Shown: positions 12,717 to 23,951, numbered from the stretch's first letter. The stretch: DNA of 64,000 nt from Candidatus Bathyarchaeia archaeon (GCA_049516875.1 JBEKSS010000001.1:64001-128000); one strand, 5' to 3'. Numbers and translations: made by a program. The notes: generated by a model not told the origin, from the sequence alone.

Positions 12717-13040
12717 GTTCCCTCCCAGACACCGTTAACTTATTCTTCATGATGTTATGATTCGCATCGAGGAAATTGGTCTAGTGACTCGGTGAATCTG
12801 GCAGGTGTTTTTGATTGTTGTGCTATCTTCTAGCGCGCATGCTTGTTCCTAAATTCGTTTGCGACATATCTCGTACTTCTCTCTTCATAGTACGTTCCAT
12901 TAGAGAGGCACACAACTCAACCCTGCCACACATTAAGAAAGGAATTTAGGAAATCCATTCCCATGAAGTCGAAGGAACAATTTCAGTCTTCTAGTGTCCC
13001 CGCTTATTATAAATACTAGTTATAGCAAGGAATACTAGGG

Positions 13041-13382
13041 ATGTTTTTGACCAGATTCTTGGCATTGTGGCATGAGAACCCGTTAGCACCATGGCCTAAG
13101 GATCCCGCTGAGCTTTCAAAATTGAGAGAAAAAATGTGGGACGGTATAGACAACCTCCTGAAGAAGGGCGAAATCAAAGAGTTCGGCTTCTTTCTGGACG
13201 GAACATCAGGATACGCAATTGGCGAAAAAGATTCAGAAACTACTTTCAGAAACATAAGCATGTTCTTGCCCTACTACGTTTCGAGCGTACATGAAATAAT
13301 ACCCTACGAGAAAGGCAAGGAAATCTTGGGGACTCTCTGGAAAGCTCAATCGAAGATGTTGCACGGGCAAAGTCAACGATAG
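13041..13382 (+). CDS. Hypothetical protein (DUF3303/muconolactone-isomerase-like fold possible)
   Basis: 113-aa ORF behind TATA-like TTATAAA at ~13008; GEIKEFGFF...GYAI pattern. Confidence 0.65.
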   Translation: MFLTRFLALWHENPLAPWPKDPAELSKLREKMWDGIDNLLKKGEIKEFGFFLDGTSGYAIGEKDSETTFRNISMFLPYYVSSVHEIIPYEKGKEILGTLWKAQSKMLHGQSQR

Positions 13383-13601
13383 CTGTCATCCGCAGACGTG
13401 ACTAGTCAAACAAATCTCATCTCTCTTTTTCTATAACCTGATCTTGTTGCTTTATTCCAGCATAGGAATAAGCCGAGCACTTCAAGATTCGATGAGAAAA
13501 GAAACCTTGAAACAGATGAGACTAGAGCGTGCGCTCTTCTGCGACCTTTTCTGAAGTTCATCTTTAACGCGTTGTGGCTTTGAGTTTTGCAATAGATTGA
13601 T

Positions 13602-13850
13602 TCAGAAGTTTCCGCGAGCGCGAGCAAGTTTGTACTTTCTATCTGATTCGTCGATTGAGTGATCGCGATCGATGGACGCTTGCTTGATATAGTTGTGTTC
13701 GCTTAGGTAGGCCATCACGATTGATCTGACTATTTCTGCGTCTTCTGTTCCAAAGCCTTTCAATGACCGGATAATATTCATCTGGTCTTCGTCGAAAGTC
13801 ACATTAACTGATTTGTGCGAGTTTGCGCTTTGATCAATCGCATTTGTCAT
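13602..13850 (-). CDS. Putative ribbon-helix-helix (CopG-like) DNA-binding protein
   Basis: SVNVTF beta strand followed by GTEDAEIVRSIVMAYL helix. Confidence 0.6.
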   Translation of the reverse strand: MTNAIDQSANSHKSVNVTFDEDQMNIIRSLKGFGTEDAEIVRSIVMAYLSEHNYIKQASIDRDHSIDESDRKYKLARARGNF

Positions 13851-14016
13851 CTATTCTTTCATCTCCATGCTTTTTCATGTATTCTTTGATAGCCCTGGTC
13901 GTTTCTTCGCTTACTCTCCGGCTTGATCCGTGCTTCTGAATGACAAAGAGCAACCATTGTTTCCAAGTGCCTTCGTCCATGTTTACGCTGGTCTTCTTTT
14001 TCGGCATGTCGGTCAT
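13834..14016 (-). CDS. Putative ribbon-helix-helix DNA-binding protein (60 aa)
   Basis: C-terminal part of the 228-aa ORF: KKKTSVNMDEGTWKQW...SEETTRAIKEYM; TATA (TTATAAA on minus) ~20 bp upstream of ATG 14016. Confidence 0.65.
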   Translation of the reverse strand: MTDMPKKKTSVNMDEGTWKQWLLFVIQKHGSSRRVSEETTRAIKEYMKKHGDERIDDKCD

Positions 14017-14145
14017 GTTTACCGTTATACCTTTATAAGTCTGCCCTTTTATGGCTTGATGAAGCATAAAATGTGAATGGGCTATTGCCAACAGGTTTAT
14101 TTTGGAAAAGACACTATTGACGATTGAAGGGTGAGGTGACAAAAC

Positions 14146-14259
14146 ATGGGTGGAGGAAGGAATACACGTAGAAAAGTCGTCGAGAGCGCTCGCCGTGACA
14201 AAGCGAAGGGTCATCAAACGAGAAGAGCTCGCGGGGGAAAGAAACAGAAGAGAAGGTAG
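14146..14259 (+). CDS. Small very basic protein (37 aa)
   Basis: SD GAGGTGA at 14133-14139; MGGGRNTRRKVVESARRDKAKGHQTRRARGGKKQKRR*. Confidence 0.55.
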   Translation: MGGGRNTRRKVVESARRDKAKGHQTRRARGGKKQKRR

Positions 14260-14410
14260 AGAAGCGATCTTGGGCAGCTCATCCTTGTAAGGTACGCTTA
14301 CGATGTATATATGAGGAAAGGCACGCCGATAAGTTATTGCAATATTCTGCTTTTGCTTAGAAATGGCATGTTTTGCCTCAGAGGTTACAAACACATAAAA
14401 AATAAGAAGG

Positions 14411-14806
14411 TTGTCTGGTAGAAACCATTCCACATTTAACATAGCAGCGGAAATTCTGAGAGAGTTGCGGGAACCAACTGGCGTTACGAATACCATATCC
14501 AATTGTAATATGAGCTTCAAACAGTCAGGGTATTACTTGAGTTTCATGAAGTCAAGCGATATTATCCAGACAGACGTAATAACGGGAAGAGTGAAGTATT
14601 GTAGAACAGAAGCTGGACAGAAGTTTCTAGAAACCTATGACAAGATGATTCTGTTACTAGATCCTGGTTTTTTTCCCGCGCTGCCCAATGTAACAACGAG
14701 CACGCGCTGCAACACGATGGTTGGTTGGGGTAAAGTTTTATCCCCAAACCCAAAAAAAGAAGTATATACCATTTTTAGCCATTTTAGGGACAAGCCAGCG
14801 CGCTAA
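14411..14806 (+). CDS. Winged helix-turn-helix regulator (archaeal HTH_45-like); tail reads through repeat site 1
   Basis: IAAEIL...TNTISNCNMS...YL...YCRTEAGQKFLETY pattern. Confidence 0.7.
   Translation: MSGRNHSTFNIAAEILRELREPTGVTNTISNCNMSFKQSGYYLSFMKSSDIIQTDVITGRVKYCRTEAGQKFLETYDKMILLLDPGFFPALPNVTTSTRCNTMVGWGKVLSPNPKKEVYTIFSHFRDKPAR
14727..14745 (+). repeat. Cassette-junction core site 1
   Basis: GGGGTAAAGTTTTATCCCC; arms GGTTGGTT / AAACCCA. Confidence 0.9.
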
Positions 14807-14868
14807 CATAAAAAGCCTATATGAAAGTTTTCGATAACATATGATAGGTCTACATGGGTGTGGTGTTC

Positions 14869-15279
14869 ATGGCTGAGTCCAAGATTAGACTCTATTTGAA
14901 AAGCGTCAAAACTGTGACGGGGACCGTCGAGATAGAACGCGAGTATATACCCCGACCCCGCCTTCCGCCCACGGTAAAAACAGAACCAAAACACGAGTAC
15001 ATACTTCCCGAGGACCAACAGAAAGCAACTCAAATGGTCAAGAGTATCGCTTCCAAGTATGGTTTAAAAGTTGAAGTTGTTGATGTGACGAGGGAAAATG
15101 TCTTTCGCAGAGAAATACAGAAAGAACGAGAAAAAATAAGGATTTTCCCAACTTTGATTGTGAGTTCTGAGGAGAGAATTGAAGGCAACATAACAGAGCA
15201 GCAAGTTGAAGAGCTTCTTTCTGGCACTCATTCTTCTGATACGCACCAACGTGACAAAAGAACTATGGGTTTGGGGTAA
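14869..15279 (+). CDS. Thioredoxin-like fold hypothetical protein (no CxxC)
   Basis: VEVVDV...FPTLIV...RIEG; stop TAA lies inside site 2. Confidence 0.7.
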   Translation: MAESKIRLYLKSVKTVTGTVEIEREYIPRPRLPPTVKTEPKHEYILPEDQQKATQMVKSIASKYGLKVEVVDVTRENVFRREIQKEREKIRIFPTLIVSSEERIEGNITEQQVEELLSGTHSSDTHQRDKRTMGLG

Positions 15280-15291
15280 AGTTTTGTCTCA
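15273..15291 (+). repeat. Cassette-junction core site 2 (right half degenerate)
   Basis: GGGGTAAAGTTTTGTCTCA; left arm TGGGTTT. Confidence 0.85.
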
Positions 15292-15350
15292 TTTTCGCTC
15301 TGATGGCTGAACTCCTCTTGTCTCGCTGCTTTGAACTCTTGTTTTCTCAT

Positions 15351-15749
15351 CTAGCGCTTGTCTTCATTGACCAGTTTCCGTCTTTCCCCGCGAAGCCAAT
15401 CATAACCAATCAACCAAGTTATAAGAGCGACAGCCAGTTGAATTCCGATAAGCAGGAACCCAAATGAGCCAGACGATGTCAATAGGCTATAATCTAGAAA
15501 CAGGAAGCTTGTCCTTTCGACAAGTTCGTAAAATATGCCGAAGTATATTGGAAAGAACAGTATCAAGGACCATGCAGCTAGGGTTGCTCTCCAACTTCTT
15601 CTCAGCCTGAGCAGCACATAGGAAGTTCCCAGACCAATTAGTGCGGGAAAAAAGAACAGTGCAACATTGAACCATACGAAAATCCAGATTGCGCCTGAGC
15701 CTATACCAGCCTGACGTTCAGATAGCAGCATCAATGTTGTTATGGGCAC
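15351..15749 (-). CDS. Hypothetical membrane protein
   Basis: 132-aa ORF with 3 TM segments, possibly N-terminally truncated. Confidence 0.6.
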   Translation of the reverse strand: MPITTLMLLSERQAGIGSGAIWIFVWFNVALFFFPALIGLGTSYVLLRLRRSWRATLAAWSLILFFPIYFGIFYELVERTSFLFLDYSLLTSSGSFGFLLIGIQLAVALITWLIGYDWLRGERRKLVNEDKR

Positions 15750-15832
15750 AATCGTTTCGAACCCTCTTTCTCTTCGTATGATTTCCTATTGCACCCCTTA
15801 TGACTTGTGGAAGAATCGGGATGGTGGTGGTT

Positions 15833-15851
15833 GGGGTAAAGTTTTATCCCC
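15833..15851 (+). repeat. Cassette-junction core site 3
   Basis: GGGGTAAAGTTTTATCCCC followed by AAACCAAAC and an (ACG)n tract at 15873-15893. Confidence 0.9.
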
Positions 15852-16108
15852 AAACCAAACATTTTTTGCAGTGACGACGGACGACGACGAACGCATAGCG
15901 ATTTACTGAGGAGTTCTAGCGCGCTCTAGTGAAACAAATAGAGATGCGCCGATATTATTCAGGTTCTTGATTAGAAGGCGTACCGTGCACAAGAATTCTT
16001 TTGCAAATTAAGGGGAAAGGAACCCTTTGTGCACGGCACATCCTAAAAGGATTAAATGATACAACCAATTTAAGCCTTGTTCACACAAAACCTTCATGAA
16101 ACCCTCAA

Positions 16109-16330
16109 ATGTGTGCTAGATAGCGAAAACTCGTTTCTTTTGAAAGATACGGATGTATAGCGCGCGCTAAAGACGGAAAGAAAGTTTCTGTTGTTGTTAA
16201 GAAGACTAGATACCTTGCAAATCTTGAAGAACTTCGAAAGGTTCTTGATGGTAGAAAAAGCTATACTTGCATTCTTGGACCTTCTGAAACAAAGAAAACT
16301 GAGGAAGTGAATGTAAAAAATGAGAGATAA
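16109..16330 (+). pseudogene. Small basic ORF with in-frame TAG at codon 5
   Basis: MCAR*RKLVSFERYGCIARAKDGKKVSVVVKKTRYLANLEELRKVLDGRKSY...; its stop overlaps the start of 16320..16520. Confidence 0.4.
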
Positions 16331-16520
16331 GAAACATAGAAGGAAACGTGTTAAGACTATTAATCTTGACACCTTCACAGGTCATAGGCTACTGTATTGG
16401 ATTGGAATGCAACGTAACAGTCTAGAGGTTAAGAGGTTTATCGCTGAGTATTTTAGAAGGAAATTTCCAGAGGATTCTTTCTGGATTCCAATTTTGAAGA
16501 GGAAAGGTTTAATCAGTTGA
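16320..16520 (+). CDS. Small basic hypothetical protein
   Basis: 66-aa ORF, GAGG upstream, coupled to the preceding ORF. Confidence 0.5.
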   Translation: MRDKKHRRKRVKTINLDTFTGHRLLYWIGMQRNSLEVKRFIAEYFRRKFPEDSFWIPILKRKGLIS

Positions 16521-16742
16521 GCAAAAACAGGAATAGTCAGCAGGAGAGAGACACATGAAAAACTGTGACACTTGTCGCCATTACAAAGAGCATAATTGGA
16601 GACTTTGCCGTAAAAGAGATTATCCGCTTCATTGTTGGGAAGCTGAATCAGTTGAGCAAAAACAGGAATAGTCAACAAAGGTATTACGACCGTACAGAAG
16701 GAAATTTCCAGAGGATTCTTTCTGGATTCCAATTTTGAAGAG
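16455..16742. repeat. Nested direct repeats A(47 bp)-B(29 bp)...B-A
   Basis: 16455-16501 = 16696-16742 and 16511-16539 = 16646-16674, both exact. Confidence 0.9.
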
Positions 16743-16810
16743 AAGAGGTTTGATCTGGTCGTTTCGTCGTCGTCAGTCGTTTTTGTTTCATTTGATTCGT
16801 TTGGGTTTTG

Positions 16811-16826
16811 GGGGTAAAGTTTTATC
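16811..16826 (+). repeat. Cassette-junction core site 4
   Basis: GGGGTAAAGTTTTATC; 16801-16825 is the exact reverse complement of 20543-20567. Confidence 0.9.
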
Positions 16827-17030
16827 AAACCCAACCCAAACCCATTTACGCTCTCAACTATCCTCACTCTCACTTACACTCACTCAGCGCGCGCTAGTAT
16901 TTGGTTGAGCGGATCAATTTTGGAATAATAATTGGTCGATGCAGCTAGTACCGTGAGTCAAATTTAAATCAACTCGAAATAAACACTGGTTGAGTAAGGA
17001 GCGTTCCATTTGACAATCAGGTGAGAAAAC

Positions 17031-17762
17031 ATGATCGACTCATTATTCCATCTCTCATTAGGTGAGGGAACATTAGTCGGCTTTTCGGCAGGTATCTTAT
17101 GCGTGCTTCTAAGCTATCTACTTATAATCTTCAGAAAGAAACGAATTGCTCGATTTTTCTTCCGCGATATGATAACCATTGTTGGTCTAGGTGTTATATT
17201 GCCGGTATTGTGGGTAAAGGCAAACGGTCTCTCTTTCAATGAATTCGGGTTGCCTGGAGAAAATTGGCTATGGGCTACATTTGCAAACATGATATTGGCG
17301 TTTTCATTGGCCACGATTTTCTATTTTGAAGCGAAGAAAAAGGGTCAGAGACCTGTTTTTTCTGGCAAATATGGAACGATTTTCTATTTGACGATAGGGG
17401 TGCTTTTTGAGACTTTGTTCTTCTATAGCTTCTTGAGACAGCTTTTTGAGCAGACCTTTGGCATAATCCCCGCGCTTTTGCTGACTTCGGTCTTTTACAG
17501 CTTGCATCACATTGGCTTAGAGGAACAAATGAAGGGCACAACGCCCGCTCAGGAGTTGAGAAAACTCTTTTTTGTAGGTCTTCTTTATTCCACCACATTC
17601 AGAATTTTCAACTCTGCTCTCGCAATTTTCCCATTTTTCATTGGTGTCGGAGTGATTTCTGATCTGATCGTTGAAAAGCAAAGTGAGCCTCTTTCGTGGA
17701 AAATCGCTCTTCTATCATTTTTCCTAATGATAGCAAGCGCGCTAATCATAATCAACCTTTGA
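17031..17762 (+). CDS. CPBP (CAAX/Abi) family intramembrane protease-like protein
   Basis: Multi-TM; FETLFF and FYSLHH resemble degenerate EExxFR / FxxxH motifs; SD AGGTGA. Confidence 0.75.
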   Translation: MIDSLFHLSLGEGTLVGFSAGILCVLLSYLLIIFRKKRIARFFFRDMITIVGLGVILPVLWVKANGLSFNEFGLPGENWLWATFANMILAFSLATIFYFEAKKKGQRPVFSGKYGTIFYLTIGVLFETLFFYSFLRQLFEQTFGIIPALLLTSVFYSLHHIGLEEQMKGTTPAQELRKLFFVGLLYSTTFRIFNSALAIFPFFIGVGVISDLIVEKQSEPLSWKIALLSFFLMIASALIIINL

Positions 17763-17953
17763 TCAAAAGAAAAGTGAACGTCTATTGGCGCGCGCTCTGT
17801 TATGAGGGGTACATTTTTGTGCTTTTCTGACCCCTCGTTGCATCAACTCACTATCCTATCCTTATTCTGTTCCAGTGGTATCCAGATGTGTCCTGAATCA
17901 GGTGTCCAGTCTTTAGCCTCCCATTGGAAGCATATGGATAGTTGTCCGTTAAC

Positions 17954-18019
17954 CGTCGTCCGTCGTGGTCGTCGTCGTGGTTCGTGGTCGTCGTCCGTCC
18001 GTCGTCCGTCGTCGTCCGT
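17954..18019. repeat. Imperfect (CGT)n/(CCGT)n tract next to site 5
   Basis: CGTCGTCCGTCGTGGTCGTCGTCGT... running directly into GGTTGGTTGG. Confidence 0.85.
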
Positions 18020-18027
18020 GGTTGGTT

Positions 18028-18042
18028 GGATAAAACTTTACC
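18028..18042 (-). repeat. Cassette-junction core site 5 (inverted)
   Basis: GGATAAAACTTTACC; right arm TCCTTCCTTCC. Confidence 0.88.
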
Positions 18043-18076
18043 TCCTTCCTTCCGTCAGTGCGCGCTTTCTTTGAAA

Positions 18077-18760
18077 TTATGGTTGAGAGCTTAGAATTTT
18101 TCGTATATGTTGAGCGATTCTGTCGTAGGCCTCGAAGGCTTCCCGGGTTGGAAACGCCTTTCTCCCCACAATCCCGTCGTACTTTACGGGAATCCCACCA
18201 ATCACGATGGTTGTGATTGGTGAAATTACAGGCATTATCCCCACATATTGATCCTTCTTGTAAGGAGTTACCATGAGGTTTGGCGATCCAAGTTCAAGCA
18301 GCATATTCTTCAGTTCCGAGTCTGCGTTCAAAAGCTGCGCCAGTTCTCCGCCCTCCCAATTGTAATCGACGATTTCGCCGGTGGGGAAGCCTTTCTTGAT
18401 CTGTTTGGCCTCCGCCTTAAGTTGGTTCTCCAGGTTTCCCACATTTGCCCTTACCACATAGTTATACCTGTAGACCAGGTGACCTGGGCCGCCTGAGACC
18501 CCACCACCTGCGCCGATCCTGGATACCTCTACTAAGTCGATGTTTCGGCCTTCGACCTTGACACAACCCAGCGGAGGAAGGTTTTCCATGGTATAATAGA
18601 TATGACTGGTTCGAGAGTGATGTATGGCTTCGGGGCTCTTGAAGTCCAACACTGTTGCTTCTACGCCGATCTGTCGAAGATGCTCACACAACTCGTTTAT
18701 CAGGCCAACTTCGCGGGTGCGCGCCTCGATCGCTCCCCTTATCTTCTTAAAAAAACTCAT
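18077..18760 (-). CDS. Hypothetical protein
   Basis: Long ORF; start trimmed to MSFFKK, GGAGGGG upstream. Confidence 0.75.
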   Translation of the reverse strand: MSFFKKIRGAIEARTREVGLINELCEHLRQIGVEATVLDFKSPEAIHHSRTSHIYYTMENLPPLGCVKVEGRNIDLVEVSRIGAGGGVSGGPGHLVYRYNYVVRANVGNLENQLKAEAKQIKKGFPTGEIVDYNWEGGELAQLLNADSELKNMLLELGSPNLMVTPYKKDQYVGIMPVISPITTIVIGGIPVKYDGIVGRKAFPTREAFEAYDRIAQHIRKILSSQP

Positions 18761-18862
18761 CTGCAACCCCTCCACTTCAATCAATAGTTAACCGTTCTTG
18801 TAAATTAGACTTTTTCTTACTCGTCTTTTTCTTTGAAGAATCTTCCATGTTCTCTCCACCTC

Positions 18863-19285
18863 CTAGTGAAGTGCTTTGATATCTCCTTTCCTCTGAGAAC
18901 CACAATTAAAGCAGGTCTTGTTCTCTAACTCGTTCAGACAATCACAGTATTCGCACTTCCAGAAAGTCTTATTTCCAAGGACGGTAGCTTTAGTAGTTTC
19001 TTGGTTTGCAGTCATCTTCCCTTTCAATTCATTTTCACAAGCAAAGCATATTCCTGTTCCCCATTCGGGATGTTTCTTCCACCATGCCTCAGGACCCGTC
19101 CATCCATTCGGAGAACTTTCTGGCACATAGCTTCCAAATGCTCTTTGGTTGGGAAGTTTTATTCCACAGACCAAACAATGAGAGCAACAAGTTTGACAGT
19201 AGTTCTTTCCTCTATTTCCTGAACCGCTAAATCTGTAAAGTTTCTTACATCTCTCACAAGTCTTCTTTTCAAACATCTCATTCAC
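18863..19285 (-). CDS. Cys-rich multi-zinc-finger protein with C-terminal RanBP2-like finger
   Basis: Six CxxC pairs; WKCEYCDCLNELENKTCFNCG. Confidence 0.7.
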   Translation of the reverse strand: MNEMFEKKTCERCKKLYRFSGSGNRGKNYCQTCCSHCLVCGIKLPNQRAFGSYVPESSPNGWTGPEAWWKKHPEWGTGICFACENELKGKMTANQETTKATVLGNKTFWKCEYCDCLNELENKTCFNCGSQRKGDIKALH

Positions 19286-19294
19286 CTCTTAATG

Positions 19295-19471
19295 TTAGGT
19301 ATGGCTCTCGGCACATGCCGATATTATTCCAGCAAGTGCAAGAAACAATGCACCACACAGGAGACCGAGAGAAACATTAGTGTCTCCCATGAGATAGGAA
19401 ATAGCTCTCGCGCGCGCGCCGTAACCACCGCCATTCTTTTCATGCAGTAACACGTTTTCACAAGTGGACAT
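19295..19471 (-). CDS. Small single-TM hypothetical protein (58 aa)
   Basis: MSTCENV...LGLLCGALFLALAGIISAC...; GTGAGG SD and CTTATAAG TATA-like box upstream. Confidence 0.4.
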   Translation of the reverse strand: MSTCENVLLHEKNGGGYGARARAISYLMGDTNVSLGLLCGALFLALAGIISACAESHT

Positions 19472-19626
19472 AGATAGTTCCTCACTTGCTACAATTTCTG
19501 ATTGAAGCTTAGCACTTATAAGACTTCAGAAGCCTGAATCAATTCAATTACTTCAACCAAGTTATTGGTTCATGGTAGTGGGCTAAACTTAACGCGCGCT
19601 CAGTGCAATTCAAACCGCACATTTAT

Positions 19627-19946
19627 CTAATTTCTTTGCCAGAAATGCTTCTTCTTGGCTTGTTCCTGCTGTTTGGACGCGATGGGTTCTTCGCGCTGTG
19701 TCGGTTCGTTTGCCTTTTCTTTCTTAACCTCGATTTCTTCACTGACCTCTTTGACGGCTTCTCTCACAGCCCTCAGCTTTATCTCTTTTATTAGGCTCAC
19801 ACCTTTACCCATGATTACGCCACCCGCATATATGGAATAGCAGAAGCGCCTCTGAAAAGAATGGAGATGCCAAAATAGGGGGGAATAATCACAACTATAA
19901 GTCCAATTGCCAGCAATGCATATCCGACAATTTTGTGAGACTCCAT
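19627..19946 (-). pseudogene. Frameshifted or internally deleted membrane protein
   Basis: MESHKIVGYALLAIGLIVVII... continues in another frame as YAGGVIMGKGVSLIKEIKL...; the 320-bp span is not a multiple of 3. Confidence 0.55.
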
Positions 19947-20542
19947 ATTAAAATCCCTCGCTTGATATGCACTAATTAGTTCACTTGTATTGATTAGTTT
20001 TATGGACTATTAATATACATTATGAATGCAACGCGCGTTATCTATGGCGAAGAGTTCGCATTGGTTTGAGGACTGCTCTTCGCAGCCAAGTCGCGACTGT
20101 CTGTCTTGTGAGCTTCATGTGTTCCTTTAAGTCGCCTACACTCAGCACAGTAGCCCAGCTTGTCTATGCTCTCGTTGTGAGCTCTGAGTTGGGCGTGGAT
20201 GGTTGCAGCGGAGCGGTCGAGTGCGCGCGCGGTGTAGTACGGTTTTCTGTATGTGTATGATTTTGTTTAGCTGTTTCTATTTCTAGTTTCTCTGTATGCT
20301 GGGGTTTAAGTGTACGTATAGCGTACTGTACGATTTTTCTGGGTGTTTTGTGTTAGTGTTGTAGCGTGTTCTTGGGTGTTTCTGTTGTTTGTTCCTAATG
20401 TTTTCTGTTCTGGCAATAATACATACAATAATAGCGAAAGACGTGAAACACACAATGGCAGACATACCAAAACCAGATAAGATACAAACCAAGCGCGTGG
20501 AGCTTAGCGTCGTCGTTCGTCGTCGTGCGTGGAAGGAAGGAA

Positions 20543-20558
20543 ATAAAACTTTACCCCC
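20543..20558 (-). repeat. Cassette-junction core site 6 (inverted)
   Basis: ATAAAACTTTACCCCC; left arm GGAAGGAAGGA preceded by (CGT)n at 20508-20530. Confidence 0.9.
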
Positions 20559-20632
20559 AAAACCCAAGTCTTAAATATGCCCGAATTGGACTGATGACAA
20601 GTTGCGATACGTGGAATAGGCAGTGTTGCTTC

Positions 20633-21385
20633 TTGCCAAAGAAAGACTCTGTGATGAGACAGTGGGACGACGCGGCAGAATCCTGGGTTGATTTTGTGAG
20701 GCAGGGTAAGGACTATTACAGGGATGAGCTTAACAACCCTGCAGCTTTCAGACTGATAGGAAACGTGAAAGGTCAACTTGTGCTGGACTTGGCCTGCGGC
20801 GAAGGATACAACACCCGAATACTGGCCCGAAAAGGTGCCAGAGTAACAGGGGCAGACTTTTCGGCGAGACTGATAGGACTTGCGAGAATCGAGGAGGCCA
20901 AAGAGAGGCTGGGCATAGACTACCGTGTTTCAGATGCTGCTGACCTGTCTGAGTTTTCAGGTAATTGCTTTGACCTTGTGACTTGTTTCATGGCGTTGCA
21001 GGATATCAAGAACTACGAGAGAGCGGTATCTGAAGTGGCAAGAGTGCTGAAGAACAGAGGCCGGTTCGTGTTTTCAATTCCTCATCCGTGTTTCGAAATG
21101 ATAGTTGACAAAGGAAACAGAATAAGCACAACTACGAGATATTTTGGAGCTGCAGAGGACCATATTCGTTGGAAAATGGAGAGACTCCTGAAACCATTCG
21201 AGACTACAAGTTTTCACAGGACATTAACCGACTATTTCAGTGTGCTCTATAAGAACAGGCTTCTCATAAGAAGGCTCGTGGAGCCACAGCCGACAAAGCA
21301 AGGGATCAAGAAACATCCACCTCTCAAAGAAGTTCTTCTCAGACCACAATCAGTAGTAATAGAAGCAGTAAAAGAGCCAATCTGA
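20633..21385 (+). CDS. Class I SAM-dependent methyltransferase
   Basis: VLDLACGEG, FDLV, RVLKNRG; start trimmed to a TTG downstream of site 6. Confidence 0.9.
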   Translation: MPKKDSVMRQWDDAAESWVDFVRQGKDYYRDELNNPAAFRLIGNVKGQLVLDLACGEGYNTRILARKGARVTGADFSARLIGLARIEEAKERLGIDYRVSDAADLSEFSGNCFDLVTCFMALQDIKNYERAVSEVARVLKNRGRFVFSIPHPCFEMIVDKGNRISTTTRYFGAAEDHIRWKMERLLKPFETTSFHRTLTDYFSVLYKNRLLIRRLVEPQPTKQGIKKHPPLKEVLLRPQSVVIEAVKEPI

Positions 21386-21404
21386 GCAGACCTCTAAGGA
21401 GATT

Positions 21405-21423
21405 GGGGCAAAGTTCTATCCCC
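21405..21423 (+). repeat. Cassette-junction core site 7 (2 substitutions)
   Basis: GGGGCAAAGTTCTATCCCC, 17/19 match to consensus, 20 bp after the methyltransferase stop. Confidence 0.75.
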
Positions 21424-21590
21424 TCTTCCTCCTGACTACCACGGCGTGGGGAAGAGAACCCGCCCTGCCTGCTGTGCACCCTGCTGGGTGTCCCGTATAT
21501 GCCGCGGCATACGCAGGGAAGAAAGGCAGTATGCAAGGGGCGCGTGCGATGAAATATGCAATTCCGACAAGCAAGTTGACAGTGCCCCCC
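21421..21590. ncRNA. Candidate structured non-coding element
   Basis: GC-rich intergenic stretch with stems CTCTTCC/GGAAGAG, CTGCC/GGCAG, CCCTGC/GCAGGG and palindrome TATGCCGCGGCATA. Confidence 0.3.
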
Positions 21591-22976: not shown

Positions 22977-23378
22977 ACTTCAAGGCTACTTATCTAGCGC
23001 GAGATGCATTCCTGTCTTTTCACAGCTACTACGTGAAGGTGGCTTCCTGTACCCGCAACATAAGGCTCATCGTAGATTCTATGCAATATTTTGGCCAACT
23101 TTTTCTTTTCCGCGCGCTAGCGTGTTGCTAAATTCGGTGAATTGGCATGAACTTGTTCGATCACGCTTGGGCTTGGACAGACACCCATGATATGGTATGT
23201 AGAAGTTTGATGAAAACGCAACCATGCTTGGAAGGCAAGCAGAAATTAACACAAACAATAGGATTTAGCAACGCCCTAGTGCGCGTCAGTAGCCTGTTGT
23301 TTGCGGCTCCTCTCACGTAAGCACGCACCGACATTCTTATCTGAAAGTCCCGTTGTAACAATCAAGCGGAAAGGCCAA

Positions 23379-23851: not shown

Positions 23852-23951
23852 TGGTGCGGTCGCCGGGATTTGAACCCGGGATCACAAGCTTGGAAGGCTT
23901 ACACTCGCCTTTGAAGGCTTTGTGTCCTAAACCAGTCTAGACGACGACCGC
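23852..23951 (-). tRNA. tRNA-Gly(TCC) with ~21-nt non-canonical intron and encoded CCA
   Basis: Reverse complement GCGGTCG...CA[intron]AGC CT TCC AA GCTTG...GGTTCAAATCC CGGCGACCGC ACCA. Confidence 0.92.

Follow-up and report, generated by a model that had tools for sequence, protein, structure and literature searches.

The stretch of DNA considered here, 64,000 nucleotides from a Candidatus Bathyarchaeia archaeon (GCA_049516875.1 JBEKSS010000001.1:64001-128000), raises the question of how a series of small segments came to lie between copies of one 13-nt sequence, GGTAAAGTTTTAT, and why the two ends of such a segment are complementary to each other. The whole stretch, referred to as the window, corresponds to C1:64001-128000 within a 2.43 Mb genome of 20 contigs (G000), and the public runs that contain it are peat and wetland metagenomes. 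The 13-nt sequence is designated the core, the sequences flanking it are its arms and a segment between two cores is a module. An initial annotation had proposed that each module was once a circle with one stem-loop site that opened at the core on integration, as with integron attC cassettes. Our analysis leads to a different enzyme. Most likely, the module ends match each other as the terminal inverted repeats of small mobile pieces of DNA that a stand-alone Cas1 inserts repeatedly at a single 13-nt target, where single-gene cassettes accumulate. The core is probably the insertion target of a casposon-like family of Bathyarchaeia elements that encode Cas1 and lack a family B polymerase (PolB), with the arms as their terminal inverted repeats. 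Casposons are rare and have been proposed as ancestors of the CRISPR adaptation machinery; to our knowledge, only a few of their enzymes have been studied.

With up to two mismatches allowed, the core occurs seven times in the window, a number reached by none of 100 shuffled sequences (1.49 ± 1.28 copies). S1 (14729-14741, plus strand), which would be one copy of a target-site duplication, and S3 (15835-15847, plus) are free of mismatches. S2 (15275-15287, plus) reads GGTAAAGTTTTGT with one mismatch, and S4 (16813-16825, plus) was recovered in the same core search. S5 (18030-18042) and S6 (20543-20555) reside on the minus strand, inverted with respect to S1 to S4. Three modules attracted attention because of their ends, and all of them lie between directly oriented cores, as the initial annotation had stated. 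The arms it had named are present as well. Module 1-2 (14742-15274, plus, 533 bp) begins with CCCCAAACCCA (14742-14752), and TGGGTTTGGGG is found at 15266-15276. The proposed 11-nt repeat is obtained only if the GG of the core is counted; with a 13-nt core that includes GG, the repeat shrinks to 9 nt and the module ends with TGGGTTTGG (15266-15274). Module 3-4 (15848-16812, plus, 965 bp) has an imperfect terminal inverted repeat (I1; 43 nt, 72%) between 15848-15891 and 16763-16812, which hold ACGACGGACGACGACGAA and TTCGTCGTCGTCAGTCGT. The repeat combines a C/A-rich arm with an (ACG)n block that is paired at 17 of 18 positions, and the module is built like a MITE (a miniature transposable element with inverted repeats), from two like ends. 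Module 5-6 (18043-20542, minus, 2500 bp) is bounded by an 11-nt non-canonical terminal inverted repeat, TCCTTCCTTCC (18043-18053) and GGAAGGAAGGA (20531-20541); at S5 and likewise at S6, the two arms of the site fail to pair with each other, in agreement with the earlier description.

A genome-wide search for the 14-mer GGTAAAGTTTTATC that tolerated no more than two mismatches left, after filtering, 60 arm-bearing sites. These sites are clustered and frequently found at contig ends. The predominant repeat is (GGTTT/GGTTG)n in left arms and (CAAAC/CAACC)n in right arms; across 213 sites, 140 arms were G/T-rich and 110 C/A-rich, with several unrelated types besides. Since the arms are dominated by two repeat types, random arm pairs already pair fairly well. 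The start arm of each module was scored against its own end arm, with permuted partners serving as the control. For 54 direct modules the mean score was 6.35 compared with 5.56 ± 0.25 after permutation (p = 0.002). In a non-redundant set of 79 modules, enlarged by loci of five related genomes and of 46 contigs from Bathyarchaeia, the corresponding values were 6.58 and 5.87 ± 0.20 (p = 0.001), and 21.5% of the modules reached a score of at least 10 against 11.2% of random pairings (p = 0.0015). Within the window, three of four direct modules score at least 10 (11, 3, 10 and 11), for which a binomial calculation by hand at a null rate of 0.112 gives about 0.005. The initial annotation had suggested folding the circular junctions in silico against shuffled pairings, and here the matched junctions proved more stable (-5.97 versus -5.37 ± 0.26 kcal/mol, p = 0.014). 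Energies of the three junctions in the window (-12.8, -12.1 and -11.4 kcal/mol) fall at about the 5th percentile of random pairings. Arms of the same site, on the other hand, pair no better than random (5.23 versus 5.52 ± 0.12). Matched pairs also occur among non-canonical arms, for example TCCTTCC/GGAAGGA, CTTCTTCTCTCTCT/AGAGAGAGAGAAAAAG and CAAACACACACA at both ends. It had been argued beforehand that complementarity within modules no better than random would refute the idea of paired ends; over 79 modules it exceeded random pairing with p of about 0.001. The excess is modest, with a clear match in about one module in five. We conclude that arms vary between sites yet match across a module more often than by chance, and that the two ends belong together.

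An enzyme that may act on such ends emerged when all open reading frames (ORFs) near the sites were clustered across genomes. A family of about 340 aa from six sources turned out to be Cas1 (PF01867 in L019, L032 and L178 with E values of 1e-49 to 3e-50). Four complete Cas1 modules of 6.1, 7.5, 7.6 and 13.5 kb reside between direct cores in genomes G003, G023, G021 and G004. In each of them a perfect 13-14 bp inverted repeat abuts the core at both ends, and the four repeat sequences differ (CCCAACCCAACCC for L019, CCCAAACCCAAAC for L032, CCAACCAACCAAC for L184 and TCCTTCCTTCCTTC for L178, the 13.5 kb element of G004). Two more distant genomes (L187 and L188) exhibit the same layout in unique DNA, with (CCCAAA)n as the inverted repeat and the variant 14-bp direct repeats GTTAAAATTTTTAT and TATTAAACTTTGGT. 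All six delimited elements of the relatives thus combine a direct repeat of 13-14 bp with perfect inverted repeats, likewise of 13-14 bp, that directly adjoin it. The arrangement is not restricted to these genomes. Among 38 metagenomic Cas1 loci flanked on each side by 1.5 kb or more, 17 were bracketed by a direct repeat of at least 11 and an inverted repeat of at least 12/14, compared with none of the 38 when a reversed but not complemented decoy was used. At least six repeat types, including (CCCAA)n, (CCAA)n, (CA)n, (CCT)n and (TCCT)n, were encountered, and each is matched within its element. The co-variation that the initial annotation had asked for is borne out for the Cas1 elements.

Eleven Cas1 genes cluster over the loci examined, and ten of them form the stand-alone family, while the protein from G004:C37 is just 24% identical. 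The ten stand-alone proteins are 44-61% identical to the first and, as read by eye from the alignment, retain the Glu/His/Asp motifs. Their PF01867 scores (128-181 bits) are lower than those of a second class (245-261 bits), which from its sequence scores we take to be CRISPR-linked. Relatives of the stand-alone Cas1 are encoded by at least 543 metagenomic contig stretches; the 120 homologues listed (62-100% identity) are named plain 'CRISPR-associated Cas1' wherever the source names them. Stand-alone Cas1 was found in five of seven genomes with at least five exact cores and in three of 34 others, a hand count in which related genomes are not independent. The genome under study encodes a single full-length stand-alone Cas1 with intact motifs (C9:118082-119107) in addition to fragments. 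Its only Cas2 match (C1:358789-359001) adjoins a partial C-terminal Cas1 match (C1:358265-359001), and a crude repeat scan yielded one CRISPR-like array on C11 at about 28-30 kb. Arm-bearing sites are present in 11 of 30 viral contigs, one of which holds a Cas1 fragment. A Cas1 profile search of the window itself found no Cas1, and its modules could therefore only be non-autonomous members of the family.

Does the direct repeat arise by insertion? The congeners G041 and G042 lack a 3.85 kb element present in G012, one of the two more distant genomes, and the matches of the two flanks overlap there by 13 and 12 nt, respectively. The empty site of G041 contains a single target copy, TTAAAATTTTTAT. 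The overlap and the single copy in this precise empty site establish a true target-site duplication. No empty site was found for the modules of the window. The orientation of the core relative to element ends varies. The last ~310 bp of module 5-6 (20230-20541, plus) align to the right end of L178 with a mean column identity of 80%, through a (CGT)n block and the GGAAGG repeat, and the core that follows is opposite in the two genomes. Another module, which G002 and C9 of G000 share with 95.5% identity over 853 bp, has its end joined to the core both ways round. Likewise, in ten clearly orientable metagenomic loci oriented by Cas1, the core is in plus orientation in four and in minus orientation in six. 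Insertion is thus independent of orientation. An element with symmetric ends may enter an asymmetric target either way, which is impossible for a circle recombining at its own oriented core, and this favors transposon insertion. A reverse-complement target copy at a new site has also been described in experiments with Methanosarcina mazei (PMC10359463). Single insertions in unique DNA have arms on the element only.

These findings suggest the following route. A Cas1 integrase would join the 3' ends of a repeat-bounded piece of DNA to the target, (G)GTAAAGTTTTAT, with a stagger of 13-14 bp, and gap repair would afterwards duplicate the target. Each insertion would leave two usable target copies, so that later pieces could land beside earlier ones and build up arrays of alternating cores and modules. 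Modules 1-2, 3-4 and 5-6 of the window would be non-autonomous relatives that rely on Cas1 supplied in trans. From comparative sequence data we infer that Cas1 may be the enzyme, that this route may also have been taken by the small modules of the window and that the sequence of the repeat is probably of little importance to the enzyme. Going further, and with rather less than even confidence, we propose an additional, polymerase-less family of Cas1 transposons in Bathyarchaeia, the integrase of which would take almost any short inverted ends and repeatedly use a single 13-nt target, so that single genes would accumulate in a natural cassette store structurally intermediate between a casposon and a CRISPR array.

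Several observations weigh against Cas1-driven insertion at the core. Well-matched ends occur in just 17 of the 79 modules (21.5%). C/T-rich arms are found at eight starts and three ends, with this type at both ends in two modules, and CACA-type arms at seven starts and four ends with one matched module; most non-canonical arms have no adjacent partner. Of the 36 pairs of neighboring cores no more than 8 kb apart in the genome, 15 are inverted, which would not be expected from simple tandem insertion. Such inverted pairs need later inversions or target copies that were carried along. An inversion by recombination between repeats is plausible for S4 and S6, as the 25 nt formed by the S4 core plus its left arm (16801-16825) recur without mismatch, in inverted orientation, at 20543-20567. 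G002 possesses 13 exact cores and has no Cas1 match. A broken tyrosine integrase gene (C1:185702-186311, ...FRKRK stop) ends 1 nt from the core at C1:186298; tyrosine-integrase elements and Cas1 elements may have overlapping targets, a situation described for the casposons of M. mazei. The elements yielded no polymerase match, and one of the features that define casposons is accordingly lacking. Finally, the Cas1 protein scores 73.8 bits against CRISPR Cas1 (4n06) and 52.7 bits against the M. mazei casposase (6opm). In view of the higher score to CRISPR Cas1, we leave the clade of the protein unplaced.

In principle, the unmatched ends of about four in five modules, the inverted core pairs and the 25-nt inverted copy at S4 and S6 could also be explained by dispersed repeats, without any dedicated mobility of the small modules. 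Cores with G-rich and C-rich microsatellite arms would then be remnants of a few Cas1 insertions between which homologous recombination shuffles and inverts ordinary genes, and the matches in the window would in part be due to chance, given that 11% of random pairings reach a score of at least 10. Arm length indeed differs between populations: in runs X9 and X15 both end repeats of module 5-6 are extended, one by TCCT after 18042 and the other by GGAAGGAA after 20530, and such unit slippage indicates that arms behave as microsatellites. Nevertheless, we regard this explanation as quite improbable, since the permutation tests reject random pairing, non-canonical pairs are matched, module 5-6 has ~310 bp in common with the end of a Cas1 element, and modules recur beside cores at 93-99% identity in different contexts in three species. 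A second possibility retains the circle of the initial annotation and exchanges the enzyme. Staggered cuts in both target copies would release a circle with the order repeat-core-repeat, which Cas1 would reinsert. An in vivo study on M. mazei describes a single empty target after excision and proposes a circular intermediate (PMC10359463), and the empty sites in our data also hold exactly one target copy. That same source reports the circle as undetected, the assembled contigs that constitute our data show none, and the occurrence of both core orientations is not simply explained by a circle carrying its own oriented core. A Cas1-dependent circle therefore appears rather unlikely to us.

The attC-like or Xer/dif-like origin proposed initially, in which a tyrosine recombinase would act at the core of a circle with a palindromic site, perhaps as a folded single strand, has some evidence on its side. 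Complementary ends rebuild a stem around the core, with the junction energies of the window given above, and single-gene modules of ~1 kb resemble cassettes. The genome also holds tyrosine recombinase genes and fragments (ten PF00589 matches), one of which is the fragment 1 nt from the core at C1:186298, and we read similar letters after S2. When PF00589 was mapped in the genome and five relatives, however, none of the ten matches fell within C1:64001-128000, in or beside the array, and G003 carries arrays with only three matches genome-wide, none of them at array coordinates. The longest ORFs (at least 60 aa, modules up to 2.5 kb) are not co-oriented with respect to the core (28 plus versus 28 minus). 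Element ends and Cas1 genes occur both ways round relative to the asymmetric core, which a fixed circular site forbids, and both the random pairing of same-site arms and the restriction of arms to the element at single insertions speak against such an origin. The enzyme inside complete members is Cas1. We consider this origin very unlikely. From the original interpretation, the discrete units, their paired ends and the duplicated core persist, while the analogy to attC sites and integrons does not. Note that fragments of tyrosine integrase genes abut tRNA-like sequence twice and the core once; there is no consistent link to the arm-bearing sites, and a tyrosine recombinase was discarded as the main candidate enzyme. 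The two former cases, by our own reading, are gene fragments ending beside tRNA-like sequence at C1:231184 and C3:15888.

The comparison with known systems sharpens the picture. Integron cassettes share with the modules the mostly single-gene units, the recurring site and a unit-owned part of that site which varies yet stays self-complementary. An attC site is a hairpin with R''/L''-L'/R' boxes located once at the 3' end of the cassette, whereas here the complementary parts flank a conserved core. In addition, Cas1 takes the place of the IntI tyrosine recombinase, no integrase-attI platform lies beside the array, and ORFs and units stand in both orientations to the core. In Xer/dif sites, a short spacer separates two conserved arms to which the recombinase binds; the arms here are mostly of two types with several unrelated ones, and no Xer candidate is linked to the sites. 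MITEs and other non-autonomous elements are similar in being short, having inverted ends, duplicating the target and lacking a transposase of their own, but most modules carry a gene, and in place of some short, loosely defined motif they have one specific 13-mer as their target. CRISPR arrays likewise involve a Cas1-family enzyme and an insertion that duplicates a short fixed sequence, which results in the order repeat-insert-repeat. They differ in that the inserts here measure 0.1-13 kb and carry genes and inverted ends, as opposed to spacers of 26-72 bp (PMC4779613), in the absence of Cas2 from the elements, and in cores that occur in both orientations with a median spacing of 1028 bp.

The closest counterparts are casposons such as family 2 of M. 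mazei. They also have a stand-alone Cas1 inside, terminal inverted repeats and a target duplication of about 14 bp, and their repeats and targets are specific to each element. According to PMC4779613, the M. mazei target duplications are of 14 bp, reuse of one target gives rise to tandem copies with one common duplication, and solo repeats and cohabitation with tyrosine-integrase elements occur; these latter traits are likewise shared. On the other hand, casposons are defined as cas1-polB islands in PMC9939771, and a family B polymerase was found in none of the six delimited elements among the ORFs scanned. The elements described here can be as small as 2.9-3.9 kb, their repeats are short microsatellites of 13-22 bp, they form arrays of many single-gene modules with a median of 1 kb instead of two large copies, and their hosts are Bathyarchaeia, with the Cas1 clade left unplaced. 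The Bathyarchaeia family shares all casposon features tested except the polymerase. In the literature accessible to us we found no report of casposons or stand-alone Cas1 elements in Bathyarchaeia; subscription papers and supplements, e.g., the casposon tables of PMC4779613, may bear on novelty. If the reading as Cas1-encoding elements holds, this apparently abundant Cas1 family would represent Cas1-driven mobility without an on-board polymerase. The many repeats that share one target would be natural substrates for learning what a Cas1 integrase reads in ends and target, and short inserts between identical duplicated targets would be the intermediate called for by the casposon-to-CRISPR scenario. 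The family would also explain a hypervariable part of Bathyarchaeia genomes that breaks assemblies.

The gene content of the elements was analyzed for the larger ORFs of the six delimited elements, i.e., all ORFs of at least 140 aa in L184 and L188 and most of them in the others. Neither a family B polymerase nor a tyrosine recombinase was matched among these ORFs in Pfam and PHROGs, and tblastn yielded no Cas2 in the delimited elements. The PHROGs search of element proteins gave nothing useful. In the 3.85 kb element, no ORF other than cas1 exceeds 181 aa. Genes common to elements encode a Walker-A protein of ~300 aa, for which the fold was predicted poorly (AlphaFold pLDDT, the per-residue confidence score, 41.9), and a protein of 142-229 aa (mean pLDDT 62.8). 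For the latter, Foldseek reported weak matches to LigD polymerase and Prim-PolC (E 0.06-0.4) and none at an E value of 0.001 or better. A primase-polymerase fold for this protein is a guess based on motifs. In three elements, a protein of 107-121 aa with an HExxH motif (HELYHH) is encoded directly after cas1 (G000 C9:119080-119445, L186:9206-9547 and L184:4641-4964).

The modules of the window mostly contain one small gene each. Module 1-2 harbors a single ORF (14854-15279, 141 aa), the stop codon of which is the TAA within core S2. The protein has weak glutaredoxin/thioredoxin matches under the Pfam cut-offs. The start of this module resembles the left ends of Cas1 elements in that the repeat is followed by a run of A. 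Segment 2-3 (15288-15834, plus, 547 bp) has unmatched ends (arm score 3) and an ORF on the minus strand (15351-15749, 132 aa) without a Pfam match. By eye, its first 19 nt (15288-15306) are similar to the 3' end of the tyrosine integrase gene at C1:186298. Module 3-4 contains an internal direct repeat spaced 241 bp; the internal direct repeats at 16455-16514/16696-16755 and at 16511-16542/16646-16677 (95-97% identical) duplicate parts of small ORFs. Segment 4-5 (16826-18029) lies between inverted cores and carries C-rich arms of the start type at both ends, CAAACCCAACCC and, on the other strand, CCAACCAACCACGGACGACG. Its ORF (17031-17762, plus, 243 aa) has no Pfam match, and an impression from sequence alone that it specifies a CPBP membrane protease was backed by no tool. 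None of the ORFs of module 5-6, 18077-18784 and 18863-19285 (minus) plus smaller ones, has a Pfam match.

The whole array is contained in an island of ~8.9 kb (12723-21587) that is absent from four congeners, in which the flanking genes abut. Its borders are not located at cores and show no clear repeat; near its right end lies the degenerate core S7 (21407-21419, plus; GGCAAAGTTCTAT, two mismatches) with the arms GGAGATTGGGG and CCCCTCTTCCTCC. A 93% identical copy of the left part of the island (12995-14751) occurs elsewhere in G004 and ends at a core. Modules that adjoin cores here are again found next to cores in G002 and G004, in different surroundings, so that three species are involved. 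The identity of the modules (93-99%) compared with that of the flanking core genes (79-87%) indicates that the modules moved recently. Genes for GNAT acetyltransferases, MFS proteins and ABC proteins are recurrently found near the sites and are taken as cargo. A protein of ~178 aa has eight paralogues (C1:48022, C4:14435, C4:168928, C4:170144, C14:9672, C15:34320, C15:36508 and C10:84740), seven of which are encoded within 4 kb of a core. We read it as a GNAT-type acetyltransferase, without a Pfam check, and it looks like common cargo.

Metagenome runs were compared as assembled contigs. Run contigs show many joints between one core region and another, for example 14744 to 15265, 14741 to 16799 and 15858 to 16807; their sides measure 20-28 nt and may stem from other repeat copies, and they were not counted as excision, and the absent cover of 14936-15669 in X9 and X15 was not counted as a finding. 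Bacterial matches were single hits, about as many as we estimate a 16-mer would give by chance in the collection searched, and were set aside. A 3.4 kb contig of X9 matches 12953-14754 and 16160-16484 with ~1.2 kb in between.

Further repeats were noted in and around the array. A tRNA-like sequence at 23855-23918 (minus) scores 26.5 bits in Rfam against a cut-off of 29 bits (E 0.0056) and is not called by ARAGORN. The hexamer GCGCGC is present in 1412 copies in the genome, ~3.4 times the expectation from base composition, compared with 313-441 copies for four other G+C-rich palindromic 6-mers. Of 34 sites in the window, 17 are located within 14798-20230; both the array and the zone 25-125 nt downstream of cores show an enrichment of the hexamer of about tenfold. 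A second repeat family has ends led by GCGCGC (23108-23292, 12825-12960 and 14751-14806). Its 185-nt copy forms a terminal stem of ~24 pairs (z -4.37), and many copies with 68-90% identity exist in congeners. A 110-nt unit of the family is found in three identical copies in the genome, and ~55 nt after the right arm of S1 recur about eight times. A search of Rfam gave no match for this family, which is possibly a MITE or a structured RNA. A 430-bp duplicate with 97% identity (19609-20037 and C7:19001-19430) contains two tiny ORFs and has GCGCGC at or near its ends and no cores.

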